A DNA stretch of 56,817 nt from a virus (Duplodnaviria; Caudoviricetes), in IMG/VR virus record IMGVR_UViG_3300046822_000346, positions 1 to 56,817 of that record. One strand, 5' to 3'. The notes beneath the pieces are model-generated. The model was not told the origin of the DNA. It did not search any database and saw only the letters and a program-made list of their open reading frames with translations. The position numbers and the translations under genes were made by a program. Within the stretch, counting starts at the first letter, position 1; the number at the start of each line of letters is the position of its first letter. Of this stretch, positions 19,549-56,817 are shown piece after piece.

Positions 19549-19561
19549 TTTGGAGAAGCCC

Positions 19562-21450: not shown

Positions 21451-21473
21451 CACCGCACGCGGTTCGAGGCATC

Positions 21474-22077: not shown

Positions 22078-22177
22078 AACCAATTTTGGAAACTGGTGGC
22101 TGCCCGGCGTGCCATCCACCAGTTTCTGGCATATAATTAATTCATAAGAAGGTTCGAGAGTTCAGGAGGCAAAGCAA

Positions 22178-28476: not shown

Positions 28477-28527
28477 CGCAGTACTCCTAACAACTCTCGA
28501 TTACGACACGCCTGTGAACGCGCGAGA

Positions 28528-28953: not shown

Positions 28954-28962
28954 CTAACACTC

Positions 28963-30465: not shown

Positions 30466-30478
30466 GGAACACTCCTAC

Positions 30479-31096
30479 TCAACTAAAGGTGTCAGTGCGG
30501 TCGATCTCTAGACTCTCCAGCGCGGTCTTCGCATGATTGTATAATACATGCGCAACCAGCGTACCGGAACCGGGAGTAGCAGAAGCATTTGGCCCGGCAA
30601 ACCATCCGATTTCCTGAATAGTAAAGTTTGTCCCGGTACCCCCGGAAGAACAGGCCTCAGACGGCGCAATGTACGTGGTGGTAGTCAGCCCATTGGCGCC
30701 CACTGCGAACTGGGTGGTAATCTGTTTGCGAAACTGTTCGGTGGTTAAGATCGTGTCGCTGGTAGCCGGAGTAGTAGCGCCACTACCCAGGGCGCCGTAC
30801 CCAATGGCTCCGTCCGCGGTGTTCCCCGCCAGCACGTCGCGAATCATGGTTCGCGCCACATCGCAGATCGTGTTGGGGAACTCCTCGACAGCTATCACCG
30901 CGCCGGCGAGGTCCCGATGGGTCACCTTGATCTGACCGCGCCAGCGCCACGTCTCTGCAAAGTGTATGACCTCGGCAATGAGTTTCTCTTCGTCCGGAAA
31001 GGCTTTGAGATCTCGCAGTGTGGGCCCTAGCTCTGGGAAGGCCTGTCCTAGATAGTGACGCAGAAAACTGCGTAGGGTAGGTGGTTCGTCCGTCAT
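30479..31096 (-). CDS. minor tail protein
   Basis: ALGSG.T.P..SDT.L..E.FRK...IQEIGWF pattern; AGGAG RBS. Confidence 0.7.
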   Translation of the reverse strand: MTDEPPTLRSFLRHYLGQAFPELGPTLRDLKAFPDEEKLIAEVIHFAETWRWRGQIKVTHRDLAGAVIAVEEFPNTICDVARTMIRDVLAGNTADGAIGYGALGSGATTPATSDTILTTEQFRKQITTQFAVGANGLTTTTYIAPSEACSSGGTGTNFTIQEIGWFAGPNASATPGSGTLVAHVLYNHAKTALESLEIDRTDTFS

Positions 31097-31106
31097 CTGA
31101 ATTCTC

Positions 31107-33083: not shown

Positions 33084-33092
33084 GCTGTGCTC

Positions 33093-35315: not shown

Positions 35316-35318
35316 ACA

Positions 35319-35497
35319 TCACCTACCCTTGTTGGCATCTTTGCGCTCTTGGGCCCAGATTTCCCAGAGAGCCATCCACTCGACAACATCCTCGCCAGAC
35401 ATTTCTCGGAGCATGTCACGCCAATTGGCATATCCGAGTTTCGCCGCCAACTCTAGATAGAAGCGGTGGGTTCCGTCGGCGAGGATTCGTCTTTTGC
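35319..35497 (-). CDS. tail assembly chaperone, -1 frameshift extension (G-T type)
   Basis: -1 frame reads KRRILADGTHRFYLELAAKLG..RDMLREMS..VVEWMA; GCAAAAG at 35491-35497. Confidence 0.7.
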
Positions 35498-35869
35498 ATC
35501 TTTGAGCGAGTCCTCGGACAGCCCGTTGAGCCGCACGCCGACTTGAGCGACGCGCTCCAACGCCTTACCCGAGAGCTTGTTCAATGCATCAACATCCGAG
35601 CGCGTGAAGATCGGCTCACGTGTTTCCGGGTGCCTGGCGCACTCCACCATGATCAGCGGATACATGCGGACCGAGTCCATCTTGCCCGTGAGTTTGTTCA
35701 GGCTCGCGTTGAGCAGTTGAGATCGGTCGTAGGCGTTGAGACCCACCATCAGAAATGTGATCCCGCCCCATTCGGGGACAGTGACCAATTCCTCGGGCAT
35801 GTTCTGCTGTTCCAGAATCATGCGCCGCAGGTCGGCTGCGGACGGCCCTACCGGCTGGGGCGAAGACAT
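35453..35869 (-). CDS. tail assembly chaperone
   Basis: V.VPEWGG motif; lies between tail tube and tape measure. Confidence 0.85.
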   Translation of the reverse strand: MSSPQPVGPSAADLRRMILEQQNMPEELVTVPEWGGITFLMVGLNAYDRSQLLNASLNKLTGKMDSVRMYPLIMVECARHPETREPIFTRSDVDALNKLSGKALERVAQVGVRLNGLSEDSLKDAKDESSPTEPTASI

Positions 35870-35878
35870 GTTGCACTC

Positions 35879-36505
35879 CTAGAGATAGTAGAGAGCAGAG
35901 TCCAGATCGAGATCTACATCCTCGGTCGGGATCGCCTCTTCCGAGTTCTTGATCTGGTCCTGCTTAAAGCGGACGTATCCCTCGTAGCGGTGACCAGAAA
36001 CAGTGTCCACATAGAGGGACGCGATAAAGGGCACCCCCATACTCTGGACGAAATACAGGTCTAGGTACAGGCGGCTGAACTTGACACTCGCGTCGTGAAT
36101 TCCGGGGCGCTGCTGTTTCCACAACCCGCCGAACACCGTAGCCTTGTTTAAACTGGTGGTGGTAGTTAACTCCCAATCCACGCCCGAGCCGCATTGGCTG
36201 ACTGTGAAGTAGGCGCCGACAGAAGCCCGTACTTGAGTGCCGCCTGCTTGAGCTGCAGTGAACGTTACCTTGCCGCCCACGTACTGGAGCGTGTAGTTAC
36301 TAGTTGCCACTGTAGACCATGTGACGCCGTCGGGGCTGGTCTGGATCGTGACGGCAGTATTTTCGTCCCAGTACCTATGCGTGTCTGAACTCGAGAGACC
36401 ATACGTGGCATGATCCCCCGAGTCCGTCAGCGCGAGATTGGTGAATGGAACAGGACTACCAGTTGCCACGTAAAAGTCGGCAGTAGCTCCTTTGAAGGTC
36501 GTCAC
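35879..36505 (-). CDS. second tail-tube-like protein with an inserted domain
   Basis: DWELT..LNK.T.FG..WK..PGI similar to 36517-36909. Confidence 0.65.
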   Translation of the reverse strand: MTTFKGATADFYVATGSPVPFTNLALTDSGDHATYGLSSSDTHRYWDENTAVTIQTSPDGVTWSTVATSNYTLQYVGGKVTFTAAQAGGTQVRASVGAYFTVSQCGSGVDWELTTTTSLNKATVFGGLWKQQRPGIHDASVKFSRLYLDLYFVQSMGVPFIASLYVDTVSGHRYEGYVRFKQDQIKNSEEAIPTEDVDLDLDSALYYL

Positions 36506-36516
36506 GCGCGCCTACC

Positions 36517-36909
36517 TTACACGGCTGTGAGAGTGCCGTCACCATCGAAATCGAAGTCTGCAGTGGCCACACCTTCGACTACCTGCTTGATCTGGATCTG
36601 CTTGATCCAGACCGAGCCGCTGTAGTGGTGGGTGCCGTCGATATCCAACTCCACCTGGACTAGCGCAGGTGTGCCGGTCATGACGGTCTGCAGAGTAGCC
36701 TGACCGTTGACATCGGTCATATCCCAGCGGCCGCCGAACTTTCCGGACCACTCACGAATACCGGAGGTTTGCGTCTTCCAAGCCTGTCCGAACTTGGTGA
36801 TCTTGTTGAGATTGTCAACAACCGTCAGTTCCCACTGGTCCATTTCGGCCACGGGAGTGGGGCTGGCCCCAACCTTGACGTTGCCGCTTGTGCCCACGAA
36901 CGTCGACAT
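36517..36909 (-). CDS. major tail tube protein
   Basis: WEL...T.FG..WK....GIREWSG...F.GDG.L. Confidence 0.8.
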   Translation of the reverse strand: MSTFVGTSGNVKVGASPTPVAEMDQWELTVVDNLNKITKFGQAWKTQTSGIREWSGKFGGRWDMTDVNGQATLQTVMTGTPALVQVELDIDGTHHYSGSVWIKQIQIKQVVEGVATADFDFDGDGTLTAV

Positions 36910-37352
36910 TAGAGCTCCTCCGCCCAGTACTGATACCGCACTTGCACGTGCCGTGATATACCATCTGGATCACGTGCTTGTACCATGTTGTCATACCGGA
37001 TGCCGATCAAAGACCACACACCGCCCGGTAATGGTAATGTGGCTTGAGTCTGCCGATGCAAGAGTGCATTGAGGCGCCCGAGAATAGCAAGACTTTCTTG
37101 CCAGCTTAACTGGCGCGACCAGATATCAATCGTGAACGTGCCCTGGACAGATTGTCCATCGAACGTATCGTCCACCTTCTCCGTGGTCTGATCATTGAGC
37201 ACTACGTACGGGAATGTGGCATTCTCCGGTACCTCGTCATACACTCCAACCAGCCCGGCGGTTGTCCCAAGCAGGCTAACCAGGTTTGTGTCCGTCGTAA
37301 GAGTGGCAAATACTGTCTCCTGCAGAACCCACGCCGCCGTATCGTATGCCAT
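36909..37352 (-). CDS. tail terminator (DUF3168-like)
   Basis: VYDEVPENATFPYVV...IDIWS...DPDG..RH. Confidence 0.85.
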   Translation of the reverse strand: MAYDTAAWVLQETVFATLTTDTNLVSLLGTTAGLVGVYDEVPENATFPYVVLNDQTTEKVDDTFDGQSVQGTFTIDIWSRQLSWQESLAILGRLNALLHRQTQATLPLPGGVWSLIGIRYDNMVQARDPDGISRHVQVRYQYWAEEL

Positions 37353-37353
37353 C

Positions 37354-37707
37354 TTACACCCCGAACTCTAGGTTAATCTCGCTCGCCAAGGCATTAAGAC
37401 AAGCCTGAAAGTTCTTGTTCAAAGACGGGTAGATAAAAGGTTGTGCCCGCATCCGCAGCGTACCCATCTCTACATAGATAGCATATTCCACATCTGAGTA
37501 GATTTCACGGCTAAGCGGAGTGTCCCCGGCCCGAATGGCGATGCTTGCCCGTAAACGCCCGGTGAGTACCGGGGCCGCTTGTTTTGCGTCCTTTTGCACC
37601 AGGAGCGCGGCTCGATCCAACCCGCGCTGTGTGGCCGTAGTCATGCGCACCGAGGCTAGCTTAAAAGCCGCAGTTACCTCTGCGATACCTGCCACCAATA
37701 TGCTCAT
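37354..37707 (-). CDS. HK97 gp10-like neck protein
   Basis: APVLTGRLRASI, YAIYVEMGT, AQPF. Confidence 0.9.
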   Translation of the reverse strand: MSILVAGIAEVTAAFKLASVRMTTATQRGLDRAALLVQKDAKQAAPVLTGRLRASIAIRAGDTPLSREIYSDVEYAIYVEMGTLRMRAQPFIYPSLNKNFQACLNALASEINLEFGV

Positions 37708-38069
37708 TGGCCGTTGAGCTCCTCGACGAACAGGTTGATCTCGCGATGTCGCTCTGCGATATCGTCCACCGAGCGAATGTTGAATATTCGCACGCCGGTG
37801 GGCGTGGTGTACTTGATGCGCATGTCCGGTGTGACTCCGGGGCGCCACCAGATGTTGACGTAGTAGAAAGTGTGGCCGGCTACTTGACCTTGTACGTATT
37901 GCTCGACGCCTTTGTACATGGTCAGACTGGCCCATACCTTCCACATAGTCACCCAGTTCTCGGCCAATCGACCTCCGGCTTGTTGCCGCGGCTGATTGGC
38001 CTGTATCTCGATCCGGCGGTTCTTAGGTCCCGCGCCGACCGGCTTAAACTGGAATTTATCTACTGGCAT
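37704..38069 (-). CDS. head closure protein
   Basis: RRIEIQ, VWA, DMRI, FNIRSV. Confidence 0.85.
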   Translation of the reverse strand: MPVDKFQFKPVGAGPKNRRIEIQANQPRQQAGGRLAENWVTMWKVWASLTMYKGVEQYVQGQVAGHTFYYVNIWWRPGVTPDMRIKYTTPTGVRIFNIRSVDDIAERHREINLFVEELNGQ

Positions 38070-38732
38070 TTAGAACCACGCCTGGTACACTGCTGGCCAC
38101 GGCCGGTAGGATTGCTGTAGCGGTCCGCGCAGGCGGAACGTGTCGAGATCCTGATAGATATCGTTGGGCACGTTTTGGCCCTCGCGGTTGAGGTACCAAA
38201 ACGCGATCAACTCGTAGATGACCTGGATAAATGGATCTGGCACGGCCAACGCAAGGCTCCCATATCCGGCAGTGTACGTGATCTTGAACGAAGCAAAACC
38301 ACGCATGGTAGGCCATACAGGCCAGACCTGTCCGGGGTTGAGGATAATGCGTCCAGGCGTCGATACCGTATCCACTACGAACACAGTCGGATCTACTTGC
38401 GTGGCGGTACCATCAAAGCCCGTGACCTCAATCTTGGTCACGGACTGTAACGGCGGCCGAGCAATCTCAGTCATGAATGGGCCATAGTCCATCAGCTGTT
38501 GCCAGGTCTGAGTTAGCAACGCGCGCCGTGTGTACTCCTCCACCCCACGCCGTGCCCGAGAGATGAGTCCCGCGAGCATAGCGTCTTCATCGGTGAAGTC
38601 AACTTTCAGGTACGCTTTTACCTGGTCGAGCGTCACTGGTTCGACGCTTGGGGCGGTGAGGAGCTGCGGGGAGATCCTGTTGCGCCTCTTCAGGTCGCGT
38701 ATCAGGAAGTTGTCCGGGTCCAGTTTCGACAT
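38070..38732 (-). CDS. head-tail connector (gp6/gp15-like); start uncertain
   Basis: EPVTLDQVKAYLKVD..ED, TRRALLTQTW, YTAGYG, WYLNRE. Confidence 0.9.
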   Translation of the reverse strand: MSKLDPDNFLIRDLKRRNRISPQLLTAPSVEPVTLDQVKAYLKVDFTDEDAMLAGLISRARRGVEEYTRRALLTQTWQQLMDYGPFMTEIARPPLQSVTKIEVTGFDGTATQVDPTVFVVDTVSTPGRIILNPGQVWPVWPTMRGFASFKITYTAGYGSLALAVPDPFIQVIYELIAFWYLNREGQNVPNDIYQDLDTFRLRGPLQQSYRPWPAVYQAWF

Positions 38733-38895
38733 CTGCCCACTCCGCAACATCAACGTGCCGATGTACAAAACTTTCCGCGAGTTCTCGAGACAGTGGCGGG
38801 AAAGTTGTCTCGTCGTATTCCTCGCCCGCCACATACTCGTGCACGTCGGTACCGTTCGGGGACCCCAAGCGCGTCTGAAGCATGCGTATCCGCAT
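38599..38895 (-). CDS. small hypothetical virion protein
   Basis: MRIRMLQT..GS.NG...EY..GEEY; overlaps the connector 5' end. Confidence 0.5.
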   Translation of the reverse strand: MRIRMLQTRLGSPNGTDVHEYVAGEEYDETTFPPLSRELAESFVHRHVDVAEWADVETGPGQLPDTRPEEAQQDLPAAPHRPKRRTSDARPGKSVPES

Positions 38896-38896
38896 A

Positions 38897-39301
38897 CTAG
38901 ACGATCGTGGATCCCGACGGCGCATAGCGCAGGTAGCCGAGGAAGGCGACCGCGGAAGTCACCGCACCTGTCGTACCGGACGCGATCAGCTGCACGATAC
39001 GCACATAGCGCAGCGAGCCGATATACGCCACAGCTTGCACCGCCGTGCCGCCACCACCAGAAGTCGCGCTCGTGAAGACACCCAGCTGGTCAGACGCCGC
39101 CACGTCCGTGAACGTGGCATTGTCGCTCGACTCCTGGAGCTTGAACGTGTGCGTGCCGTCTGTCACCACGCCGATCGCCAAGATGAAGGTCAGCGCTTCG
39201 CCCAGTTGGCGGTCGATCCCAAGGCCATTGTTAGTTGCCCCAGACCGAGCCGCAGGCGCGAGGGCCAGTGAAGGCGCAATCTCGCGAAGTTGGTCTCGCA
39301 T
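38897..39301 (-). CDS. capsid decoration / accessory protein
   Basis: Follows the MCP; G.GID...LQESSDN..FTDVA...Y.G..RYVR. Confidence 0.7.
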   Translation of the reverse strand: MRDQLREIAPSLALAPAARSGATNNGLGIDRQLGEALTFILAIGVVTDGTHTFKLQESSDNATFTDVAASDQLGVFTSATSGGGGTAVQAVAYIGSLRYVRIVQLIASGTTGAVTSAVAFLGYLRYAPSGSTIV

Positions 39302-39363
39302 CTCACACTCCTGGGGCTACACCGAAGTGTAGCCCACCAGACTCGTGATCCTTGGGCCGTAGC

Positions 39364-40572
39364 CTACTGGATCTTGATGATCCGCATCGCCTCGGGCAGC
39401 ACCACCTGGCCGCCGACACGCTTGCGCGTCAGATACGCCAGCTGGCCCGACTCGGCATATTTCTCGGTCAAAACCTTGACGACCATCTGTACACGATCGA
39501 TGATTGTGTACGCGCGTTTGAAGTCGCCGAACATCACCGCGAACGCGCCGGTTGCCACGAGCGGCATGTCCGGCACTTCCATGTACGGACGACCCAGGAT
39601 CGTCGCCGGTTGCGCGCCACCCAGGCCATCGGGGTAGCTCGGCTCCCACAGATAGCGGTTCTGGGTATCTTTGAGGCCTCGGATGTAGCCGATGGTCTCA
39701 CGGCGCATCAGCCACTGCGCGTTGCCCGCGTAGGCCGACTTCAGGTTGTACATGGACGTGATGAGGTCGTCGAACTTCAGGGTCCCCACCGTACCCGAGG
39801 TATCCTGCGCCACACCGGTGTTGGCGCCCAGTAGGCCGAACGGCTGACCTACACCCGTGCCATTGACGAACGCCTTGCCTTCGGCCACCGCGAACTGCTC
39901 CGCGGTCTCCGTCTGGATCTCAGCGTCCAGATCGAACGCGCTGTCCTCGAGATCCTGCTGCGAGATAATCACCTCGGCATACATCTCGTGGTTCGGGATT
40001 TCCTGGCGGCCGAACTGGAGACCAGTCGTCTCGGTGCGGGTCGTGATCTCATTGACCCACCTGGCCGCGAACAGCCCTGTGCGGACCGGCATGATGACCG
40101 ATCGCATCGTGGTGGACCGCACGTTGGCGATCTGCCGGATCGGGGAGATCAGCACGACACCCTTGATGATGTCTTTGACCCATTCGTCCGGAGCCAAGAA
40201 GCCGCCGGTCGTGTCGTCTGACAGCGACAGCGCCTTCGCATCTTCCGGACCCGCCAGCTTCATGGCCTGCTGATACGCGGGCTCCATGTTGCTGAACTTG
40301 GCGGCGCGCACGAACTTCGAGAACGCTTTGCGCTCGGCGGACATGTCCGCGATCTGCGCATTGCTGCCGACATACGGGCGCCGCATCAGGGTCTCGACCA
40401 CGTCGATGCGCGAGCTGATCTCGGTAAGGGCGTTCTTGGTCTCCTGGAACGAAGCACCAACCGTCTTGATTTCTTGATCTTGGCGATCCGCCTTCTCGCG
40501 AAGAGCGGCAGTAAGCTCTCGGAGCTGGTCGCCAAGCGCCTTCTGGTCGTCTGGCACTTGTGTGCCTCCCAT
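39364..40572 (-). CDS. major capsid protein (HK97 fold)
   Basis: GGFLAP, F.NGTG..QP.G, LKD..NRYLW, GDF..AY.I.DR, RVGG. Confidence 0.95.
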   Translation of the reverse strand: MGGTQVPDDQKALGDQLRELTAALREKADRQDQEIKTVGASFQETKNALTEISSRIDVVETLMRRPYVGSNAQIADMSAERKAFSKFVRAAKFSNMEPAYQQAMKLAGPEDAKALSLSDDTTGGFLAPDEWVKDIIKGVVLISPIRQIANVRSTTMRSVIMPVRTGLFAARWVNEITTRTETTGLQFGRQEIPNHEMYAEVIISQQDLEDSAFDLDAEIQTETAEQFAVAEGKAFVNGTGVGQPFGLLGANTGVAQDTSGTVGTLKFDDLITSMYNLKSAYAGNAQWLMRRETIGYIRGLKDTQNRYLWEPSYPDGLGGAQPATILGRPYMEVPDMPLVATGAFAVMFGDFKRAYTIIDRVQMVVKVLTEKYAESGQLAYLTRKRVGGQVVLPEAMRIIKIQ

Positions 40573-41751
40573 TCAGTTCGCTAGGGCGCGAAGTTGCGCC
40601 AGGACGTCACTGTAGTCGCTGTCCTGAGTGGCTTGGGCCGGCTCAGAGGGCGCGGCAGTGGTGGCCTTATGCTCCGGCTGCTCGCGGGGCGTGTCAGTTG
40701 ACGGCTTAGTCTCATCCTGTACAGCGCCTTTGCTGTCACCAGAGTCGTAAGTGCCGCCCAACATGCCCTTCATCGATGTCGCGTGTCCCGCGAGGCTATC
40801 GGCAATATCCCCCAACGCTTTTTCGTTGGCGGCAGAGAACGTGCGGCCGACCTTTGCCTCATCGGGTGCACCTGCGGACATATATCCGCCATAGTAACCA
40901 TAGGAATAATCAGAGTCATCGTCGTCCGCGATACCCAGTGCGGCGAGAAGATTATCAGCCGCAGTAGCTACCACGTCCGATTCCGTATCCAGCTGTCGGG
41001 CTAGATCTTGTACACCTTCTGCCCCGGCCACAGCCGCCACTGCAGCCGAGACAGTCTGGAGGGCGGCATTATCCATGCCATCTGGATCCGGGATACCGAG
41101 CAGCTGCACCAACATGTCACAGTACTGCACCAAGGCATCGGTAGCATCATCGATGTACTGCGCCAGACACGCGACTGCCGCAATGCCGCCATCATTGACG
41201 GACTTTTGCAGGCGCGGGGGAATCGGGCGCTGCTTTCCGGCGCCACGTCGTTTCACCGTAGTCACATCCGCCTCCGCGTTCATTGGAAAGGTAACAATGG
41301 ACCCTTCCCACAGGCGCAGCTCGATCAGATTGCGTACGCCCTTCTCCCAACGCTCTTTGACCGTATCATAGCCAATGGACATGCCCCGAATGTACTTCTT
41401 CTTGAGCCCGCTATACGCCCGCTGGCCTTGTGGGATATCCATATCGAGTTCACCCTCGACATAGAGTCCCTTGGCATCCTCCGCCATATTGACAAAGCCG
41501 CCGATCGGCTCGTTGGGGTTGTGCTGCCAGAGGATCGGAAAAAGATACGGCGAATCACTTGCCGACTGCGTACTTTTGGCTTCGCGGATAGTCTTGACAA
41601 ACGCTCCGGGCTGCACCGAGTCATTACCATAGTCAACATTGCCGAACGTGGACAGATACCCGGAAAACTTGCCCGTGGTATCATCCAAGGCCTTGAAGTC
41701 GTGCAGGACCAGAGTTTTGTGCGAAGGGGCCGTTTTCATACGGACTGGCAT
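40573..41751 (-). CDS. HK97-family prohead protease with an acidic C-terminal extension
   Basis: FSGYLSTFGNVD, LWQH..PIG, MSIGY, LWEGSIVTFPMN. Confidence 0.92.
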   Translation of the reverse strand: MPVRMKTAPSHKTLVLHDFKALDDTTGKFSGYLSTFGNVDYGNDSVQPGAFVKTIREAKSTQSASDSPYLFPILWQHNPNEPIGGFVNMAEDAKGLYVEGELDMDIPQGQRAYSGLKKKYIRGMSIGYDTVKERWEKGVRNLIELRLWEGSIVTFPMNAEADVTTVKRRGAGKQRPIPPRLQKSVNDGGIAAVACLAQYIDDATDALVQYCDMLVQLLGIPDPDGMDNAALQTVSAAVAAVAGAEGVQDLARQLDTESDVVATAADNLLAALGIADDDDSDYSYGYYGGYMSAGAPDEAKVGRTFSAANEKALGDIADSLAGHATSMKGMLGGTYDSGDSKGAVQDETKPSTDTPREQPEHKATTAAPSEPAQATQDSDYSDVLAQLRALAN

Positions 41752-41866
41752 GTCTATCTCCTCCCGGGTGCACATCCGGGGTATAGTTCTATGGTTATGA
41801 TACCGCGCCAACGCGCAAACTGCACGACCCCGTCACGCTCAGTTTGTAAAATTGACCCAAATGGCT

Positions 41867-42316
41867 TTAGTGCTGGTAGCCGCACGCTCGCGCTAGATCA
41901 CCCGGCGTCACCGTTTCGAAGTGCTGAAACTTGGACACCGCCGGATCACCCCACTTGGCCAGGAATGCCGCGGCCAGGTGGCTACAGTCGAAAGCCTTGC
42001 GGCCGATCAGGAGTGCTCTGCCACTCAACTTGAGTATATCGTCGTAGATATCTTCGTACGAGTACTCGTCCCCTACCTGAGCATGCAACCAGTCCCGCAC
42101 ACTGTCCTGTTTGGGCAAGGAGATCAGGGGTCGCGGCCGATAGACCAGCCCTGTGCGCTGGTACTCCATCAGTACCACGCCGTTGTTCATAGCCGCTACC
42201 TGCGTCGTATCGTCCCAACGGATCGCCACATGCACCACGTCTGATTGAGTGCGCCACTCAATCAAGTGGGACGTGAACGATCCGTCACTGCGGTAGAACA
42301 AAATATCTCCGAACAT
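41867..42316 (-). CDS. permuted papain-like (YaeF/YiiX, NlpC/P60) protein
   Basis: GDILF...HVAI...YSY...CSHL...TPGDL with His preceding Cys. Confidence 0.8.
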   Translation of the reverse strand: MFGDILFYRSDGSFTSHLIEWRTQSDVVHVAIRWDDTTQVAAMNNGVVLMEYQRTGLVYRPRPLISLPKQDSVRDWLHAQVGDEYSYEDIYDDILKLSGRALLIGRKAFDCSHLAAAFLAKWGDPAVSKFQHFETVTPGDLARACGYQH

Positions 42317-42324
42317 GTCTCCCC

Positions 42325-43188
42325 CTACGCCGGATCGTATGTCTCGGTACAGCGGCAGTTCACAATCTCTCCTGCATCTGCCCCCAAAGAACTATCCCCC
42401 GGGAACATCAGCTGAGAGCCACCGACATCATACGGATCCGTGAGTGCTTGCTGCTGCCCATCTGCGGCAGCGTGGGTCTCGCGAGTACGTAATCCCCCGG
42501 TTGCCAGCCATGTATGCACCAGAGTGAGTCCCGTGCCCAACGCATACTGCTGACTGGCGCAGTTACTCGCCGCCACAGTCTCGGTCCGCGCGATCATAGT
42601 AGCGCGCGATCCCAGGCCCACATATAGACTCGATATACTCGCGGCAATGTCGTCCATACCCAGGCCGGCCTCAACAGCCGCAGCCACCACTTGGGCAACC
42701 TGATCGCGGGTGGTATCGGTGATATCGGATACCTTCGAGAGACCCACAGGGCCAAGAATATAATCCACCACATCTTCCAGCCACGGATCCTCGTCATAGA
42801 GATCCTCCAGGTCTGGATCCATATCAACATCGTAGTCATCTTTGCGCTTTGACGGCACCCACAGTTTGGCACTGGTGTACGGATCCAACTCTTTGGCCGT
42901 AATAGTACCAAAGTCCTGTCCCACGGCCACATAGGTTGCAACCAATAGTTGCTGCCAGGCCTGTTTGGCTGGGTCCGACATCAGATAGGCCGACACCACG
43001 CTCAGTCCGTGTTGTGCGTCAACGCTGCTGCGAAAGGCTTCGAGGACGGCGCGCTTCTCTTTGCCGAACTGCTTGTCGACAACAGTCTCGATCGCTGTGT
43101 ACCACGAGGTGCGGGCACGCTCTTTTTCTTGCCCGAGGCGTACTCGATCGTCATCACTCCGCGCTTTGAGACGAAAGGGCGGCGCTTC
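42325..43188 (-). CDS. MuF/SPP1 gp7-like head morphogenesis protein, probably expressed by frameshift from portal
   Basis: IARTE, WLAT...TRETH...DGQ, FPGD, NCRC; frame open to 43188 with no start codon until GTG at 43002/42999. Confidence 0.8.
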   Translation of the reverse strand, partial: EAPPFRLKARSDDDRVRLGQEKERARTSWYTAIETVVDKQFGKEKRAVLEAFRSSVDAQHGLSVVSAYLMSDPAKQAWQQLLVATYVAVGQDFGTITAKELDPYTSAKLWVPSKRKDDYDVDMDPDLEDLYDEDPWLEDVVDYILGPVGLSKVSDITDTTRDQVAQVVAAAVEAGLGMDDIAASISSLYVGLGSRATMIARTETVAASNCASQQYALGTGLTLVHTWLATGGLRTRETHAAADGQQQALTDPYDVGGSQLMFPGDSSLGADAGEIVNCRCTETYDPA

Positions 43189-44606
43189 TCATCCCCCGCA
43201 GGTGCCACAGGTGCAGCGGGCGTCGTTGGTTCTGCCCCAGGAACCGCCGGTTCTGCACCGGTTGGGGCAGGACCTGTGTTTGGATCGGGCGGGTTGGGGT
43301 TCTCGACCGTTTGGCCCGGCAGCAAGGACACCGGCGGTACCACAGGTGGCTCGGCGGCCTGCTCGATCGGGAGTTGCTCGGTGGTCATGTACAAGAGATC
43401 TGCGGCCTCATTCTCGTAGAGCTCGTAGCCCAGTTCCTCACGAGCCTCGTTAGGCGTCAGGACCCCCGCCTTGACCGCGTTGAGTACATTGGTCCATACT
43501 ACCTGGCGATCTTCTTGTAGCGCCTCGATCGAGTCTTTGTCGTACATAAGCACGTACTGGTCGCCATACCGCACGGTCAGCCACTCGTTGAGTTCGGCCT
43601 GGAGCCAATCCATCAACGGCAGGATCTTTTCCTCGTAATAGGCCTTGCGTGCTTCTTGGTAATTGGAGTACGTCTTGTTGGAGTTATCTCCGATCAGCTC
43701 CGGCGGGACCCCGAAGGCAATCGCGATCTCACGCGCAGAGAGCTTCTGGCCCTCAAGCCAGTCCATATCCTTGGGGCTCACGCCCATCTCTTGCCACGTC
43801 ATGCCGCCCTCAAGCAGCAGCGGAGTCCCGGCGTTGGTAGTGCCCGTCCACTCATCGTTCAGAAGCCGCCGTAATCGGTCATACTCGTCATCGGAAATGC
43901 TGCCTGTCGAGGACAGCGCCCCAGTGGGCTTAGCTCCATTTTGCAGCATCGCCACATTCCACGCTTTGGCCTCATTATTCTGGTCGATGGAACGCGCGGC
44001 CGCTTGGATCGGCGAGAGACCGTACCAGTCGTTGGTAGGGTGAAAGGTCTTAAGATGCCGCGTATTGATGGTGTCCATACCCCCAACCGTGACGTTATTG
44101 GCGGTGTACTCGTATCCCCGAACCAATGTCACCGCATCGCCCGGAACCACCTTGACCCGATCGGGCCGTAGCGTCCACAGTTCTAGCGGCGGTTTGTTGC
44201 CCGAGGGCCCGGCGGTGGTGATATAGCTGTTCCCGGCCAACTGCAGGTAGGCGACCACTGCCTCAATGAACTTGGGTCCGGCCTGAAAGGGGTTGGGTTT
44301 GTCCAGCAAGTCCAGCAGCGGGTGGTCTTCGATCTCGGTCAACTTGGAACGTGACTTGCTGAACATCAGCCACGGAATACCGGCGCAGGTGGTGGAGACG
44401 TAATCGATGCAACGATACACGTAAATATTGCGGTTGAATCCTTCCTCGGCAAGCTTCTGATACTCCACCGGCGTCCACACCGGCCTGCCAGGAGTGGAGA
44501 TAGCTACCAGGGATCGCCCGACTGGATTATCCTTCCGCATTTCGGGTCCTAGCAAACGCACGCCCCACCGCACGGCTTGTTTGCCGACCCAGTCACGCAT
44601 TGCCAT
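43002..44606 (-). CDS. portal protein (HK97 family)
   Basis: HPLL.LL.KPN, GNSY, LRPDRV, GLSP, FGVPP..IG, TPNEAR. Confidence 0.95.
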   Translation of the reverse strand: MAMRDWVGKQAVRWGVRLLGPEMRKDNPVGRSLVAISTPGRPVWTPVEYQKLAEEGFNRNIYVYRCIDYVSTTCAGIPWLMFSKSRSKLTEIEDHPLLDLLDKPNPFQAGPKFIEAVVAYLQLAGNSYITTAGPSGNKPPLELWTLRPDRVKVVPGDAVTLVRGYEYTANNVTVGGMDTINTRHLKTFHPTNDWYGLSPIQAAARSIDQNNEAKAWNVAMLQNGAKPTGALSSTGSISDDEYDRLRRLLNDEWTGTTNAGTPLLLEGGMTWQEMGVSPKDMDWLEGQKLSAREIAIAFGVPPELIGDNSNKTYSNYQEARKAYYEEKILPLMDWLQAELNEWLTVRYGDQYVLMYDKDSIEALQEDRQVVWTNVLNAVKAGVLTPNEAREELGYELYENEAADLLYMTTEQLPIEQAAEPPVVPPVSLLPGQTVENPNPPDPNTGPAPTGAEPAVPGAEPTTPAAPVAPAGDEKRRPFVSKRGVMTIEYASGKKKSVPAPRGTQRSRLLSTSSSAKRSAPSSKPFAAALTHNTD

Positions 44607-44609
44607 GAA

Positions 44610-45899
44610 TCACCTCAGGCTCCGTATATTCGGGCGCGGTGCCAAGTTCAGCACAGTGAACGCGCCAGAAGTTGCATCGATCTGGTCTTTAAACGCGTGC
44701 GGGAACGCGAGGGCCTCTTCGAGCCAAGTATTGATCCAGTTGCCTCGTACCAGAAACAGGTTGCCGGCCCGAGCTGCAGAGCTCAGCGGGCCGGCGCGTG
44801 AGACTTTGTCCCGATCGGGGCGGTACGGATTCACATTGTAGCCTCGCAGTATATTGCGCTGATAATGTGAGATGGTATTAATACCACCAGAGCCAGGTTC
44901 TTGTTCAATATACACCGGCGTATTCGTACCGTCCAGCTCTGCAGCCAAACGGACCGTATTCTCAACCGCCAGAGGATCGCCGCGAAAGCGCACCATGTCG
45001 AGTAACCAATACTGCCCTTGGTGTGTTGCCAGTTTCGCACCCGCTGTGAACGCGCTAGTAGTATTGCGCGTTGCTGCAAAGTCCCAGAACCGTACAATCT
45101 TAGAGTGCATCGGGTAGTCGTCGACAATCTGGAAGTATTCGCGCTTGAACAGTTCGCCGTCGGGGATCACGTTCCAGTCGCCATTAAGCAACTGCGCCCG
45201 CGTGATCGGATCCAGGTTCTCCAACGAGCGTTGATAGTCCTCTTGGTCCAGGTGCGGGTTATCGGTCAGTTTGGCCGGAACGAACACGCGCCCGAACTTG
45301 CGCCCATCAATCAAGAATCGCTGGCGCACCCATTCGTGGCCTAGGCCGCCCGGGTTGCTGGCGCTCCGCACGCGTGTCGGGATACCGAGCTCGATGCGGC
45401 GCCGTTTGCGCGAGAACAGATACAAGTACCACGGCTCGTAGAACTGCGTCAGCTCGTCGAAGCCAATAAATTGGAACGCGGCGCCCTGGTACTGGTAGAT
45501 ATCATTCTTGGAATCGAGGTAGCCAAACGAGATGGTAGCGCCGCTGGGGAATTGCCACTGATGTAACGCGCTATCGTACTTGACATCGTTGCGCGAACCC
45601 CACCATTCCATGGAGAGTGGAATCAGCGCGCCCGGTTTCGAGAGATCGGCAAACGTGCGGCGCAAGATCAGGGCGTTGTATCCTGGTACGTCAACATACT
45701 GCGCTGCAGCGGCCAACATACCGTACGACTTGCCGCCGCCCGCTGCGCCCCCGTAGAAAACTTCCTCGACATCATTACAGAGCAAAAAAGCAAGTTGGCG
45801 AGTGGTAGGCTCCCCAACTATAAACTCATTCCAATGAAGCGACACCCGTTCCCGGATATTCTCGAGAACCGGACCCGTCCATTTAGGTATCGCCGCCAT
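44610..45899 (-). CDS. terL: terminase large subunit
   Basis: YGGAAGGGKS Walker A, FDELT Walker B, SNPGG, WDFA, DQIDA. Confidence 0.95.
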   Translation of the reverse strand: MAAIPKWTGPVLENIRERVSLHWNEFIVGEPTTRQLAFLLCNDVEEVFYGGAAGGGKSYGMLAAAAQYVDVPGYNALILRRTFADLSKPGALIPLSMEWWGSRNDVKYDSALHQWQFPSGATISFGYLDSKNDIYQYQGAAFQFIGFDELTQFYEPWYLYLFSRKRRRIELGIPTRVRSASNPGGLGHEWVRQRFLIDGRKFGRVFVPAKLTDNPHLDQEDYQRSLENLDPITRAQLLNGDWNVIPDGELFKREYFQIVDDYPMHSKIVRFWDFAATRNTTSAFTAGAKLATHQGQYWLLDMVRFRGDPLAVENTVRLAAELDGTNTPVYIEQEPGSGGINTISHYQRNILRGYNVNPYRPDRDKVSRAGPLSSAARAGNLFLVRGNWINTWLEEALAFPHAFKDQIDATSGAFTVLNLAPRPNIRSLR

Positions 45900-46155
45900 A
45901 CTCTGTATCCTCTCCCCTGAGAATACCAGACCCGCTATGCCTGGTACCCTCAGAGTCAGGAGAGTCCCACATATGGCCAAATAACGAGCGTGCCGGCGCG
46001 TGCTCGTCTCTCGTAGTATAGAACACGAGCGTTCGCAACGGCACGATGGGCCGAATGGTTAGGGCCGAAAGGGTCGCCTGCAGCGCGGAAATCTGCAGTT
46101 GCAGAATATCCAACTGTGCGTGAAGCTTCTGAATGGCTTCAAGCGACCCCACCAT
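45883..46155 (-). CDS. hypothetical protein
   Basis: AGGAG RBS; fills the queC-terL gap. Confidence 0.45.
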   Translation of the reverse strand: MVGSLEAIQKLHAQLDILQLQISALQATLSALTIRPIVPLRTLVFYTTRDEHAPARSLFGHMWDSPDSEGTRHSGSGILRGEDTEYGGDT

Positions 46156-46160
46156 GTCTC

Positions 46161-46895
46161 CTACAGATCTCCGCCAGTGTGCAGATCGAGACGTGCCACT
46201 TCGCAGGTCTCTTCCCAGGTGCAAGCATACGGCGTCGTATCGTACACGTGCGCCTGATACAGGGCCTGGCGCCGCTCCGAACACGTGCCACACTTGCCGC
46301 AGTGAATATCGCCACCCTCGTAACAGGACCACGTCTCCTGCACCGGCACACTATAAATCTCAGCCATACGCGCGATGTTCGTCTTGGACAACATCACGAA
46401 CGGCGCCCGCAGGATCGGCAGTGGGTCCGCCCATTCATTGCCCAATCGCAACGCGGTATTGAGTGCTGCGATGAACTCCGGCCGACAGTCGGGGTAGATC
46501 GCATGATCCCCTGCATGTACCCCAGTATACACCCTGGAGGCATGTTCCGCCACCGCAATCCCATAGGCGATGGAGAGCATGATCGCGTTGCGGTTCGGCA
46601 CAACCGTTGCCTTCATGTTGTCGGCAGCATAGTGGCCCATAGGCACTGCGCCGCCGTGAGCTGTCAGCGCCGAGCCGTGGAGCAGTTCGGCCATGAAGTC
46701 CATCTCGATCACGATGTGCTCGGCATGTAGCCGTCTGGCAGTTTGTGCCGCGAACTGGAGCTCTTTGCGATGCCGCTGGCCGTAGTCAAAACTCAGCAGG
46801 AGCAGGTCATCCTGCACGGTCCCATTGCCGCTCACCACATGAGCAAGCGTGACGCTGTCCAAGCCGCCGCTACAGATCACAATAGACTTCGCCAA
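46161..46895 (-). CDS. queC: 7-cyano-7-deazaguanine synthase
   Basis: SGGLDS, YGQRH, VPNRN, YPDCR, SCY..CGKCGTC. Confidence 0.95.
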   Translation of the reverse strand: MAKSIVICSGGLDSVTLAHVVSGNGTVQDDLLLLSFDYGQRHRKELQFAAQTARRLHAEHIVIEMDFMAELLHGSALTAHGGAVPMGHYAADNMKATVVPNRNAIMLSIAYGIAVAEHASRVYTGVHAGDHAIYPDCRPEFIAALNTALRLGNEWADPLPILRAPFVMLSKTNIARMAEIYSVPVQETWSCYEGGDIHCGKCGTCSERRQALYQAHVYDTTPYACTWEETCEVARLDLHTGGDL

Positions 46896-46969
46896 GGTCT
46901 TTCTCCTACGGCGTTTTACGTCAGTCCGCCGACGCTTCCGGATTGCCCTGTGCGCTCCGGTATGTTAAT

Positions 46970-46998
46970 AATATACCCTATTTCGGGCATATCATCAA
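46970..46998 (-). promoter_or_regulatory. internal promoter for queC
   Basis: TTGATG-N17-TATATT. Confidence 0.5.
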
Positions 46999-47016
46999 CG
47001 CCCCATTTGGGCCGGC

Positions 47017-47631
47017 TCACTCGTCGGCTTCCACCACTTCTACCAACGTGTTCGGATCGCGCGTGTGGATCGCGGCCTCAAACGCGCCGACTTCGTCGAG
47101 AATCTGCAACACTTGCGCCAACTGGTTATCGGGGAGCCTCTTGACCGGCGACTCAATCTGCGGCCGCTCTTCTTGCTGCCCAGGAATACGGAACTCGACC
47201 GCGTCCGACCAGTTGCCCGACAGACCGCCCTTGGTGAGCCAGATCTCGGGCTTCTCGTACCACACGCGCTGTTCCGCCGCCGAACGGGCTACCCCGATAG
47301 CTGCCATCACCGCGACATAGAAAAGCGCGTAGGTGGTCAGCGCCTCCTCATCCGGCAACACGTCGTATTCCTGCTTGCCCCAGTTGAGCCAGTTCCAGAG
47401 GCGATTGCCGACCAGCCCGCACGAGGCAGCAGCCGCCTGGGGTGAGGCGCCTTGGCAAATCTGTTGGCAGATCTCCAGGGTTAATTCCGGCGATAGCTTG
47501 GTACGTGCCCCAGCGCGTGAAACAAGTTCCCGCACGGCATCGGTCTCGACAGTATCGTCGATGTCCTCTGGCGCCGGCCGGTTACCGCGACGCTTCATGT
47601 TGATATCGAGCTTGGCCAATTTCTTCCTCAC
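47017..47631 (-). CDS. putative terminase small subunit
   Basis: HTH-like I..G.S...AA...G...LWNWL..G; upstream of terL. Confidence 0.7.
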   Translation of the reverse strand: MRKKLAKLDINMKRRGNRPAPEDIDDTVETDAVRELVSRAGARTKLSPELTLEICQQICQGASPQAAAASCGLVGNRLWNWLNWGKQEYDVLPDEEALTTYALFYVAVMAAIGVARSAAEQRVWYEKPEIWLTKGGLSGNWSDAVEFRIPGQQEERPQIESPVKRLPDNQLAQVLQILDEVGAFEAAIHTRDPNTLVEVVEADE

Positions 47632-47800
47632 TTGCCTGGCGGAGCGTGGTGATTAAGAACCACTGCTGCCCGGAGCCACGACCGCACAGCGCATAGGTGC
47701 CATGCGGCATACTATTAATCTGGCGAATGGCAGTGACCATATTGGTGTGCGTAGTCAACTCGACTACCACGATATCTCCCACATGAAATTCTTCGTTCAT
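47582..47800 (-). CDS. small hypothetical protein
   Basis: AGGGG RBS; FHVGDIVVV N-terminus. Confidence 0.5.
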   Translation of the reverse strand: MNEEFHVGDIVVVELTTHTNMVTAIRQINSMPHGTYALCGRGSGQQWFLITTLRQASEEEIGQARYQHEASR

Positions 47801-48084
47801 ATGCGCCCCTAAAAGAAAGGCGACGTACCCGCCTTGAGGTCTAGGCCCCGTGGAGCCCTTTCCCGTGCCGCAGTACGTCGCACCGGTGAGTTGGCCGATG
47901 TCTATGGCGCGTGCCGACGATGTTCATGCGCGCTTCATCGCTAGCCTGCCAAAGCCCCTGACCGTTTAACGCTACGAAGCCCTTCTGCAGCGACCAACTC
48001 ACAAAGGTGGGCCTGGGGGGACTCGTTATGCACAACACCCGCCCCATCAAGCTGCATGGTTAAGACAGCTCCAAGCCCACAGAC

Positions 48085-48432
48085 CTAGTCCTCGGTACCC
48101 GTCGCCCCCGTCGTGTCCTCGGAGGCCAATACCACCGAGGCGTTGACAACCGGCGGATCTGCAACCTGCACCGTACAGGAGACGAAGTCGTTGGCCCAGC
48201 CTGGCGTCTTCTCGTGCTTGAGATTGGCATGACCACCCATGTAGCCCGAGACCCAAGTCTCTGGTGTCACCGCACCCAGTGCGCCGGAGTTGACAGCCGC
48301 CAGCAGGCAAGCTTTTGCCGCTTCGAGCTGCTCCAACGCTTCCGGGAAATCCTGGCCCGCCGGCTTGAGCGTATCGAGTACGGCCTCAAGCTGTCCCACC
48401 TGGGTTGGTGGCACATTTACACTCCAACTCAT
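48085..48432 (-). CDS. hypothetical protein
   Basis: GAGGA RBS before MSWSVNV. Confidence 0.6.
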   Translation of the reverse strand: MSWSVNVPPTQVGQLEAVLDTLKPAGQDFPEALEQLEAAKACLLAAVNSGALGAVTPETWVSGYMGGHANLKHEKTPGWANDFVSCTVQVADPPVVNASVVLASEDTTGATGTED

Positions 48433-48472
48433 ACCTGTCCTCTCTCCTCCACTTGGAGGGGCGCCTGTACGG

Positions 48473-49033
48473 CTATACCCTGGCACCCTTTATCATGTTG
48501 CAGCCCAGATGTGTCAGCTGGACATTTGAACGATCATGAGTACCACCTTTTGACAGTGGTAAGATGTGATCCAGTGACGGCATCATTGGATCCGGCCAAG
48601 CAATGTTCGGATCTACGGGATCTCCGCATAGTTGGCAAACCCACTTGTTCGCCTCGAACACCTCGAGAATATTAACATATTCGCCCGCCTCAAGTTGGGC
48701 TCGGCGAATAGCGTTGCGCATTCGATACCGGCTGGGATCCGCTTTGTAACGGTCTCGGCCGTACTGACGATAGTACTCCCGGTTGGCTTCACGCCGAACA
48801 GCTTTTCTGGTCAGATCTTGAGTGCGAAAGTCCTCGTCGGCGTGATAACGCTTTCTCGCTGACGCGTTCTGCGTTTCCCGGACTTTCTCAGGATTCCTCT
48901 CGCGATAGCCCGCATTAATGGCCTTCACCTTTTCTCGGTTTTTAGCCTTCCAGCGTGCTACCGCGGCCCCTCTTGTTGCTGTCGTCATTTTAGTCTCCTG
49001 GAGGACGCTGGGCGAGTTGAACGCCCGCGCCAT
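48473..49033 (-). CDS. HNH endonuclease (alternative start at 48988)
   Basis: CQLC, LDHILPLSKGG.H..SN...H..CN..K. Confidence 0.9.
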   Translation of the reverse strand: MARAFNSPSVLQETKMTTATRGAAVARWKAKNREKVKAINAGYRERNPEKVRETQNASARKRYHADEDFRTQDLTRKAVRREANREYYRQYGRDRYKADPSRYRMRNAIRRAQLEAGEYVNILEVFEANKWVCQLCGDPVDPNIAWPDPMMPSLDHILPLSKGGTHDRSNVQLTHLGCNMIKGARV

Positions 49034-49084
49034 GCACGCTCCCCTTCCAAAACGTGCATAACTGCCGCCTTCTCAGCAGCGCCC

Positions 49085-49177
49085 AGAGTACGAAACACCT
49101 TCAAGATGCTACAGGTCGTTCCCACGCGTTGCCAGACCCAGCCACTTGTGTTTGGAGGTGTGGGTGCTTCGTACTCT
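49085..49177 (-). ncRNA. candidate structured small RNA / leader with an anti-SD loop
   Basis: Promoter TTGAAA(49204-9)-N17-TATAAT(49181-6); 15-bp closing stem; internal loop ACCUCCAAAC. Confidence 0.5.
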
Positions 49178-49192
49178 TGAATTATACCCCAC

Positions 49193-49690
49193 TTACGCTG
49201 GCATTTCAACGGGATCTTCCGGGCTCTTTGGGGCAGGTAATCGATCCGGTGTGTAGTAACGCAAGCGATGCGGGTCTTCTTTGACCACGACAATGCGGCC
49301 CTGAGCTTCGAGCCACGCTAAAATCTGGCGCCCTTCGGCTGCGGCCACCACGTGTGCCAGCTGCGTGCCCGTGAGGCCGGGAAAGCTCCGTATATAAGCA
49401 TACAATCGCGCAGCGTTGCGATTGAGGCCTTCCGGATACGTGACCTCCGGCAAGTTGAGCTCACTGATGGCCCAGACCTCACTGGGTGAGCCGGTGATGT
49501 ACCACTTGGAGCGTTGCACCTTGCCTTCGAGGGCCAGTTCCTGCAAGAGATACCGCACGGCGCGGCGCGATTCTTTGGGCAAGATCAAGAACACCGGCAA
49601 GACGCGGTGTTCGGCTAGTTCAGCGAGAATACCCTGTTTGAGCTTCTCGCGGTTGTCTCCGGGAGCTTCGGGAATCAAAATACGAGGCAT
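49193..49690 (-). CDS. putative winged-helix protein
   Basis: Two wHTH-like segments (YLLQELALEGKV; ILAWLEAQGRI); own promoter. Confidence 0.55.
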   Translation of the reverse strand: MPRILIPEAPGDNREKLKQGILAELAEHRVLPVFLILPKESRRAVRYLLQELALEGKVQRSKWYITGSPSEVWAISELNLPEVTYPEGLNRNAARLYAYIRSFPGLTGTQLAHVVAAAEGRQILAWLEAQGRIVVVKEDPHRLRYYTPDRLPAPKSPEDPVEMPA

Positions 49691-49716
49691 GGAACAGTTC
49701 CCCCCTTTCTGCTCTT

Positions 49717-49769
49717 ATTATACCATCACCCGCGTGCCCCGTGCACCGATCGATCTGCCGGACTATACT
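49717..49769. promoter_or_regulatory. back-to-back promoters sharing a palindromic GTGCAC -35
   Basis: GTGCAC at 49741-6; + strand N17-TATACT, - strand N18-TATAAT. Confidence 0.55.
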
Positions 49770-49813
49770 TATAGCAGATGTAATACTTGCATCTGCTGAA
49801 AGGAGACCGAACC

Positions 49814-50080
49814 ATGTCACCGAGCACTCCGGCACCAAACAGTCGGCCACTTGAGCCGCGCGTCCAAGTCACGCTCCAGATGCCGCAAACCTTGTACCAG
49901 GCCGTCGAACGGCTCACACGCCAAGGCGAGCGCCACGCTTTCCTGTTGAACATTATCCAACAGGATCCAGCAGTCGCCAAAACCGTCCTCGCGCTCCAAG
50001 CAGAGGCGGCAGAACGGGCCCGCTTTGAGGAGCTGGGCCGCAAGGCTGCGGAGCAAGGACTCCTGACCCCTGGCACGTAA
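49814..50080 (+). CDS. ribbon-helix-helix-like protein
   Basis: AAGGAG RBS; RVQVTLQMPQTLYQAVE...R..F. Confidence 0.65.
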   Translation: MSPSTPAPNSRPLEPRVQVTLQMPQTLYQAVERLTRQGERHAFLLNIIQQDPAVAKTVLALQAEAAERARFEELGRKAAEQGLLTPGT

Positions 50081-50169
50081 ATGGCCATTTGGCGCCATCA
50101 GGGCATATGACGTACATTCCCTGTGCTTGCTGTGACCAGCGGCACAGGGAGTTTTTTGCGCGAAATCCG

Positions 50170-50520
50170 AGCCACGATTCCCGATCGCTGATCGATCATG
50201 AGCGATATTTCCCTATCGGGAATCGCGGCGAATGCACACTAGCTATACGCTGCCATGCCCTCATGACCGATATGACCGTTCCATGAGGGGGTAATTATAT
50301 ATAATGAGAGAAAGTGTTGGATTTGTATATATGGATCACAGTTTTATCGATCATATCGATCATCTCTTATTGTCAACCCACATAAATTGTGCAGGGGCCA
50401 CATTACCGATCGCATTTGGCTCGCTCATTATCGCTCATCGATCGGGAATCATGTTCACTTCTCTCTGTGGCACGAATAGTATCCAGATAATCCAAAAAGC
50501 CCGGTTGCAGTTTTGATCGT
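50170..50520. other. putative replication origin
   Basis: Noncoding AT-rich core flanked by inverted repeats; nine GATC sites; upstream of the primase. Confidence 0.5.
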
Positions 50521-50661
50521 GCCGATATATACTAAGAGAGTACGCACGCACTGCAGGTCAATCAGCGTATACTAACTCCCATATCCTCACTGCAGTACGT
50601 GCTGTACCTTCCTCGCGCGTTACACCAGGCGTTCACACCACAGGAAAGGAACGGACATACC

Positions 50662-52995: not shown

Positions 52996-53025
52996 GAGCC
53001 TGTCCTCCTCTGGACAGGCTCTTTT
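52996..53025 (+). terminator. intrinsic terminator
   Basis: GAGCCTGTCC-tcctct-GGACAGGCTC-TTTT. Confidence 0.8.
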
Positions 53026-56709: not shown

Positions 56710-56817
56710 CCGGCGTGCCTTTTCCATCTGCCTGATTTATAATGAGATCATGGAAGGCGGACCGGCATGACGGCCGCCAAGCGCAGCAGTTTTGGAGGTA
56801 CCACGCATGGCAAGCAC
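56710..56817 (+). promoter_or_regulatory. cassette-type promoter, RBS and start of a truncated ORF
   Basis: CCGGCGTGCC..TATAAT(56738), leader hairpin, TTTTGGAGGT, ATG at 56807. Confidence 0.7.

Follow-up and report, generated by a model that had tools for sequence, protein, structure and literature searches.

The C-rich motifs of RNAIII and RsaE sit in well-defined hairpin loops of discrete, terminated small RNAs (sRNAs), and the c4 RNA, which is processed by RNase P, uses a loop to pair with a ribosome-binding site (RBS). Structure at the beginning of a message can also matter in cis, in that base-paired 5' ends hinder 5'-end-dependent decay and 5'-terminal stem-loops stabilise mRNA. Stabilisation of this kind was reportedly described in 1992 by Emory, Bouvet and Belasco and by Bouvet and Belasco (both cited in PMC3997798). 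One report (PMC8198154) places c4, icd and ant in one operon and finds C4 to be needed for full repression of ant, and another (PMC9378689) describes the put elements of HK022 as two RNAs of approximately 70 nt that follow PL and PR, are similar in sequence, and are protein-independent. We compared with these systems an element on the minus strand of a soil phage genome, which the initial annotation had proposed to be a discrete sRNA of ~90 nt, made from the late arm and exposing a loop complementary to the RBSs of a family of phage genes. The feature is real, and it is an RNA-level element, although what can be recognised is a leader and not a demonstrable sRNA.

The record IMGVR_UViG_3300046822_000346 was analysed over 56,817 bases (the whole stretch of DNA, hereafter the window), with approximately 57% G+C and a completeness rating of 70%. 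A minus-strand arm running from ~49.7 kb to ~23 kb carries genes for an HNH endonuclease, QueC, the large terminase, portal and structural proteins; the replication genes on the plus strand encode a PrimPol/D5 helicase, an SNF2 helicase and DNA polymerase A; and between 13.8 and 22.6 kb lies a series of small orphan genes, each preceded by its own promoter cassette. The QueC-like gene (46161-46895, minus strand; Pfam 2.8e-58), with the HNH block on one side and the gene for the large terminase on the other, suggests that the DNA of this phage carries a 7-deazaguanine modification, and the family A DNA polymerase (10401-12980, plus strand) shares its ORF with an N-terminal domain of the uracil-DNA-glycosylase superfamily. 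Immediately around the element are the HNH endonuclease gene (48473-48988, minus strand; Pfam HNH 1.2e-08, and PHROG HNH families), with a start that coincides with that of gene-caller product P0002 (171 aa, beginning at 48988) and a product with distant relatives only in the protein collection, and, upstream, a 165-aa orphan gene (49193-49690, minus strand) that finds its own cluster only. The 165-aa protein is probably a tandem winged-helix DNA-binding protein, judging from its predicted secondary structure and from its Atlas neighbours, which are winged-helix regulators and serve as leads only; its AlphaFold model (pLDDT 56) was too poor for a fold search. Divergent from this gene, an 88-aa ORF with the Shine-Dalgarno (SD) sequence AAGGAG occupies 49814-50080 of the plus strand, and the control region common to the two contains a CAGATG...CATCTG inverted repeat. 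The 88-aa product, which had no significant Pfam match, was read as ribbon-helix-helix-like, and a 120-aa minus-strand ORF overlapping it is probably spurious. The stretch that follows (50089-50500), between this small plus-strand gene and the second promoter discussed below, is non-coding, AT-richer, and carries repeated ATCGATCAT-type motifs; it directly precedes the replication genes and may be a replication origin.

The promoter from which the element would be transcribed, here called P1, was found by sequence inspection at 49181-49209 of the minus strand, and consists of TTGAAA (49209-49204), a 17-nt spacer and TATAAT (49186-49181), exactly as the initial annotation had described it, its activity being a prediction from the sequence. 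P1 is the sole 11/12 match to the sigma-70 consensus in the whole window, where 100 dinucleotide shuffles gave a mean of 0.15 such matches and at least one in 14 of 100, and it is also the sole minus-strand promoter scoring at least 10/12; the TAA stop of the 165-aa ORF (49195-49193) falls within its spacer. Promoter-like matches within 28,000-47,900 remained at chance level (13 found versus 9.5 +/- 2.6 expected). An assignment of P1 to the late arm was not supported, as it is the best host-type consensus of this genome and there is no ground for calling it late. Based on the usual distance to the -10 box, transcription is predicted to start at G49174.

The 15-bp closing stem that had been reported is in place as well, with the 5' arm at 49163-49177 and the 3' arm at 49085-49099 (both minus strand, with one G-U pair). 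The 5' arm contains AGAGTACG 3 nt past the -10 box, and pair probabilities for the 5' arm range between 0.72 and 1.0; the 3' arm is likewise supported by sequence and pair probabilities. A start at G49174 would lie inside the helix, leaving 12 paired bases from +1. Stems of this kind (at least 15 bp, no more than one G-U pair, and a span of up to 140 nt) are found at 9 loci in the window versus 0.1 per shuffled genome in 40 shuffles, and the one at P1 qualifies on the minus strand only. A separate 15-bp stem centred at 50200 also counts on the minus strand only. Between the two arms are 63 nt (49100-49162, minus strand) that are weakly structured, lack a well-defined fold, and hold the segment CACCUCCAAACAC (49160-49148), which is the complement of the cassette RBS. 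Taken alone, the element is not unusually stable (z -1.49, equalled by 18 of 200 shuffles). It contains no AUG, so a leader peptide was rejected; a miniature transposon was also rejected, given the single copy in the record and no target-site duplication, and a role of the plus strand as RBS for a 30-codon antisense ORF was set aside because no cassette promoter lies upstream of it.

Inspection of the minus strand from the element to the start of the HNH gene revealed no intrinsic terminator, and the first terminator-like hairpin downstream of P1 (47817-47835, minus strand) lies beyond the HNH gene and two further ORFs of 133 and 69 aa. A transcript from P1 would thus be the 5' leader of an mRNA, and the discrete ~90-nt sRNA that had been suggested is not visible in the sequence. 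Within this leader of ~186 nt, the element is the first of four hairpins. The third (49029-49062, minus strand) is predicted by folding to have a stem of 12-14 bp, in which several pairs are G-U, closed by a GGAAGG loop, and buries an upstream in-frame ATG (49033-49031); the fourth (49010-49026, minus strand) is predicted to have 5 bp. The SD AGGAG (48999-48995) and the ATG at 48988-48986, which is the likely HNH start, are unpaired in the leader fold (48986-48999, minus strand). The 193-nt RNA from 49177 to 48985 has a minimum free energy (MFE) of -78.1 kcal/mol (z -2.87) and none of 200 shuffles is as stable, whereas the opposite, plus strand reaches -64.6 kcal/mol (z -1.45, 18 of 200 shuffles), so that the minus-strand fold is better by 13.5 kcal/mol. 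The G-U pairs of the closing stem and of the third hairpin are, in fact, possible on the minus strand only. Such strand-specific folding indicates that it is the transcript of the minus strand that carries the structure, and supports the earlier proposal of an RNA-level element on this strand downstream of a strong promoter.

A paralogous arrangement, P2, is found on the plus strand at 50505-50609, with TTGCAG at 50505-10, a 17-nt spacer, TATACT at 50528-33 and AGAGTACG at 50537-44, the latter after a gap of 3 nt from the -10 box that is identical to the spacing at P1. There are only five occurrences of AGAGTACG in the window, two of which are the arms of the P1 helix, with the third being the one at 50537 (plus strand). 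The 5' stem of P2 (50540-50609) has 16 bp, two single-base bulges and an unpaired, C-rich loop of 33 nt, and its stability was not reached by any of 200 shuffles (z -3.56). P2 leads to a 66-aa ORF (ATG 50665) and to the PrimPol/D5 helicase gene, and a strong terminator-like hairpin with a 10-bp stem (52996-53021, plus strand) directly follows the latter. The two units are alike only in their first 8-16 nt, and their folds differ; the shared opening is suggestive of common descent or function. GUAC is the predicted first four transcribed bases at both P1 (49174, minus strand) and P2 (50540, plus strand), and the same four bases recur in four cassettes, within the loop of their first leader hairpin (14843, 16845 and 18871 on the plus strand, and 14578 on the minus strand).

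We favour the explanation that the element is the 5' end of a cis-acting mRNA leader rather than a free-standing sRNA, with a probability of about one half, because there is no terminator before the HNH gene, the leader is more stable than its shuffles, the SD and AUG are open, and P2 offers a parallel. According to this explanation, transcription from the strong, host-type P1 would start at approximately G49174, and the first 12 nt (15 should the start be a few bases upstream) would pair with nt 76-90 to form a long 5'-terminal helix closing a loosely folded 63-nt domain, followed by three further hairpins, with the SD AGGAG and the AUG at 48988 of the HNH endonuclease gene remaining open. 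P2, ahead of the replication genes, likewise has AGAGUACG at the P1 distance from its -10 box and begins with a long 5' stem. The task of such a leader might be to shield the 5' terminus of its message or to guide the processing of that terminus or, as another option, to set the expression of the downstream unit, and the match of its C-rich segment to the cassette RBS would be secondary or fortuitous. The phage leader would resemble the leader stabilisers of E. coli ompA and papA in having a helix at or near its predicted first transcribed base and then an accessible RBS, and it is heavily structured, on the transcribed strand only; the phage helix differs in closing a 63-nt domain instead of a small hairpin, and its start site is a prediction. 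Most of the 14 cassette leaders described below have a hairpin within ~30 nt of their predicted start, so that 5'-proximal helices are a general feature of the messages of this phage. Against our preferred reading, a plain 5' stabiliser needs neither the 63-nt interior nor an anti-SD-like segment, and the rarity among control windows of an 11-nt match to a cassette translation initiation region (TIR; 25 of 10,745) hints at more than passive structure.

The cassette family, to which this match refers, has 14 members (13826-22137 and 56734-56743), namely 13 exact copies of GGCATATAAT (plus strand at 14843, 15220, 15747, 16434, 16845, 17290, 17971, 18871, 19201, 21722 and 22128; minus strand at 14578 and 13826) and the variant GATTTATAAT at 56734 (plus strand). 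The common layout comprises CCGGCGTGCC 14 nt upstream, AAACTGG further up, GTGCCA/T at the -35 position, a leader hairpin and, approximately 8 nt ahead of the start, an SD of the (G)TTTGGAGG type. Six of the cassette gene products were scanned and yielded no Pfam family, and none of the viral contigs in the collection contains the exact cassette-promoter pattern. In three cassettes, at 14910 (plus strand), 14508 and 13756 (both minus strand), ATC replaces ATG 7-8 nt from GGAGG; the respective frames are open for 67, 96 and 66 codons, all three have the extended SD GGAGGTG, and these ATC triplets may be non-canonical start codons. This region also holds several inverted repeats of 14-32 nt, perfect or nearly so (13784-13888, 17916-17946, 19169-19209, 19764-19810 and 21475-21508), which are likely terminators or operators between cassettes.

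The RBS matches quoted in the initial annotation all exist, namely TTTGGAGGTGT at 14895, GTTTGGAGG at 16889, 18014, 18916 and 19231 (spanning 16889-19239, plus strand) and TTTGGAGGT at 56791, together with TTGGAGGTG on the minus strand, which is located at 14523-14515, one base away from the position initially given. The best complementary site for CACCUCCAAACAC is the RBS of the cassette at 14843, with 11 nt (14895-14905, plus strand), and the perfect complement extends over 9 nt at 16889, 18014, 18916, 19231, 56791 and 14523 (minus strand). The structure that had been drawn to expose this segment fared less well. The pair probability of the CCAC/GUGG hairpin is 0.00-0.01, and one of its C residues is common to the 15-bp stem; the GGGUC/GACCU stem can form, albeit more weakly than drawn (0.27-0.39). 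Overall, that structure has an energy of -26.8 to -27.6 kcal/mol versus an MFE of -33.2 kcal/mol, and is therefore 5.6-6.4 kcal/mol above the latter.

These matches raise the question of action in trans. Should the leader, or a fragment excised from it in the manner of c4, work as an anti-RBS riboregulator, its CACCUCCAAACAC would pair with (G)UUUGGAGG(UG) and lower translation of the cassette genes; the segment would be a mimic of the anti-SD of the ribosome, extended by AAAC and thereby specific for the (G)UUUGGAGG RBS, and one abundant transcript would lower translation of a whole gene class as the packaging arm switches on. We regard such a riboregulator as rather unlikely, and the more specific proposal that the leader of the HNH/packaging arm doubles as an anti-RBS RNA, lowering translation across the 14-cassette regulon, as decidedly doubtful. 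Speaking for it, perfect complementarity of at least 9 nt is present in 7 of the 14 cassettes and reaches 11 nt in one; TTTGGAGG, which occurs eight times in the window, is part of a cassette RBS in six cases, the remaining two being the complement of the element and a site inside a gene; and when hybridisation sites are ranked across the genome, cassette RBSs fill 6 of the top 10 places and 9 of the top 25. This ranking was obtained with a 16-nt seed, since duplex scans with a long segment gave loop-ridden and uninformative pairings, and comprised 140 sites at or below -11 kcal/mol, with the element's own antisense site left out. Furthermore, opening CCUCCAAAC, which is fully open in 38% of the ensemble, costs only 0.6 kcal/mol, and among 10,745 control windows of 63 nt taken outside the cassettes, complements to some cassette TIR reached 9 nt in 521, 10 nt in 155 and 11 nt in only 25. 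However, no terminator delimits a discrete sRNA, the hairpin that should display the segment has a pair probability of 0.01, and CCUCC is paired in the MFE structure of the element. Net interaction energies after opening both partners are modest, at -2.7 to -11.0 kcal/mol. The cassettes are copies of one another, hence the many matches are in essence a single match to a single consensus, and every CCUCC can pair with every SD. The 25 windows with an 11-nt match fall at five loci, of which the element is one and four are others, eight 10-mers elsewhere in the genome are complementary to the 63-nt interior, and the loop of P2 shows no match to the cassettes longer than 7 nt. All considered, the chance of the RBS match is approximately 0.002-0.004 per element and, if a couple of dozen leaders or gaps are allowed for, approximately 0.05-0.1, which is suggestive but not compelling. 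RNAIII and RsaE share with the element a CCUCC-containing segment complementary to GGAGG-type SDs; the phage element differs from both in having no terminator and no predicted C-rich hairpin. The c4 RNA (Rfam C4) of the phages P1 and P7, the closest analogue for an anti-RBS role, blocks translation by pairing at an RBS, and resembles the element as an RNA in an operon leader with a closing helix that joins the 5' and 3' ends; the 9-11 nt of complement to 7 of 14 cassette RBSs may be added to this likeness as one of complementarity, not of regulation. Unlike c4, however, the element has no recognisable processing signal, and its putative targets are not downstream on the same transcript but 27-35 kb away and on the other strand. 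The matching RBSs lie, in fact, at 14.5-19.2 kb and at 56.8 kb, most of them on the opposite strand, and the SD of the HNH gene itself is unpaired.

Three further explanations need to be weighed against a cis-acting leader. The nascent RNAs of P1 and P2 could modify RNA polymerase so as to pass downstream terminators and continue into the long late and replication arms, as in the processive antitermination of HK022, which would agree with two promoter-proximal structured RNAs sharing an opening sequence and heading two outward-pointing arms, with a terminator-like hairpin and then co-oriented genes after both units (47835-47817, minus strand; 52996-53021, plus strand), and with a late arm devoid of any other good sigma-70 promoter. 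Like putL and putR, the two elements stand just past the promoters of long operons that have terminators downstream, a layout resembling that described for the put RNAs (PMC9378689). This likeness is one of layout, as the put RNAs are ~70 nt long, have two stem-loops and are mutually similar, whereas P1 (90 nt, multibranch) and P2 (bulged stem, 33-nt loop) have no fold or two-stem architecture in common and are alike at their beginning only; late promoters of an unrecognised type would, moreover, make read-through unnecessary, and we judge antitermination unlikely. If the repeats acted instead as DNA, the inverted 15-mers, which cover -3 to +12 of P1 and recur 78 bp downstream, would together with the AGAGTACG of P2 bind a phage regulator repressing both promoters, candidates for which would be the adjacent 165-aa protein, with its winged-helix likeness, and the small protein encoded divergently from it. 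The equal placement of AGAGTACG from the -10 box at both promoters and its scarcity in the window would fit such an operator, as would the inverted repeat beginning upstream of the predicted transcription start and the resemblance (leads only) of the product of the adjoining gene to winged-helix regulators. The arms at P2, however, differ by single-base bulges, which are tolerated by an RNA helix but not by repeated protein sites, the folding is strand-specific and G-U-dependent, and a distance of 63 bp between arms is unusual for a dimeric operator, which makes this option quite improbable in our view. Finally, the locus might have no dedicated function, and promoter-like sequence and inverted repeat be left over, for instance, as the scar of a mobile HNH insertion. 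HNH genes are often mobile, and the present one has distant relatives only; an 11/12 promoter match appears in 14 of 100 shuffled genomes, and the interior is without a well-defined fold. On the other hand, the expectation for a 15-bp stem is 0.1 per genome, here the stem is placed exactly at the predicted start of the sole 11/12 promoter and is mirrored at P2, the leader as a whole is more stable than all of its 200 shuffles, and neither a second copy nor a target-site duplication hints at a miniature transposon. We consider a relic very unlikely.

Searches of phage, viral, metagenome and protein collections returned no close relative of this phage. A blastn search of 48400-49800 against the phage collection returned no relative, protein-anchored locus searches of viral contigs with the 165-aa protein, HNH and TerL gave nothing usable, and the one anchored on the PrimPol helicase gave a single locus at 28% identity; the best cultured relatives of TerL have no more than 43% identity. 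For the 165-aa protein, no relative was found in metagenome contigs, nor outside its own cluster among 1.84 billion representatives, making it an orphan in both protein libraries. The exact loop pattern had no match in viral contigs. A degenerate pattern of the P1/P2 promoter plus AGAGTACG matched 12 loci in metagenome contigs (GC 0.34-0.57), which were judged to be chance matches, as in them no long helix closes from the 5' end as it does at P1 and P2. The sequence is present in 24 soil or rhizosphere runs, none of which is recorded as RNA, and of four such runs that were compared, one lacks the element and the other three match it with 0 differences, hence without microdiversity. With regard to known RNA families, Rfam, with C4, HEARO and riboswitches among its models, yielded 0 matches for the whole window at gathering thresholds. 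For 48900-49300, with E up to 10, it returned two chance-level matches only (microRNA and snoRNA models), so that the element has no C4 match even at this limit, and for P2 (50480-50700) it returned microRNA-type matches and one sRNA-type match, all far below gathering.

In the literature searched, a regulon-wide translational switch of the kind considered above was not found described for phages, and here it is an attractive idea with one moderately significant sequence match behind it. What is unusual in this genome, more than the sRNA idea, is its 14-copy family of promoter, leader and RBS cassettes together with the pair of P1 and P2, that is, two consensus host-type promoters followed by the same eight opening bases and a long 5' helix, alongside 14 cassette promoters that belong to another type. 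The arrangement of P1, P2 and cassettes can serve directly as a guide for mapping transcripts. Were the anti-RBS reading true, translation of an entire class of phage genes would be coordinated by one RNA; if the cis-acting reading is true, this locus would be a clean, though ordinary, illustration of the way an orphan soil phage designs its transcription units.
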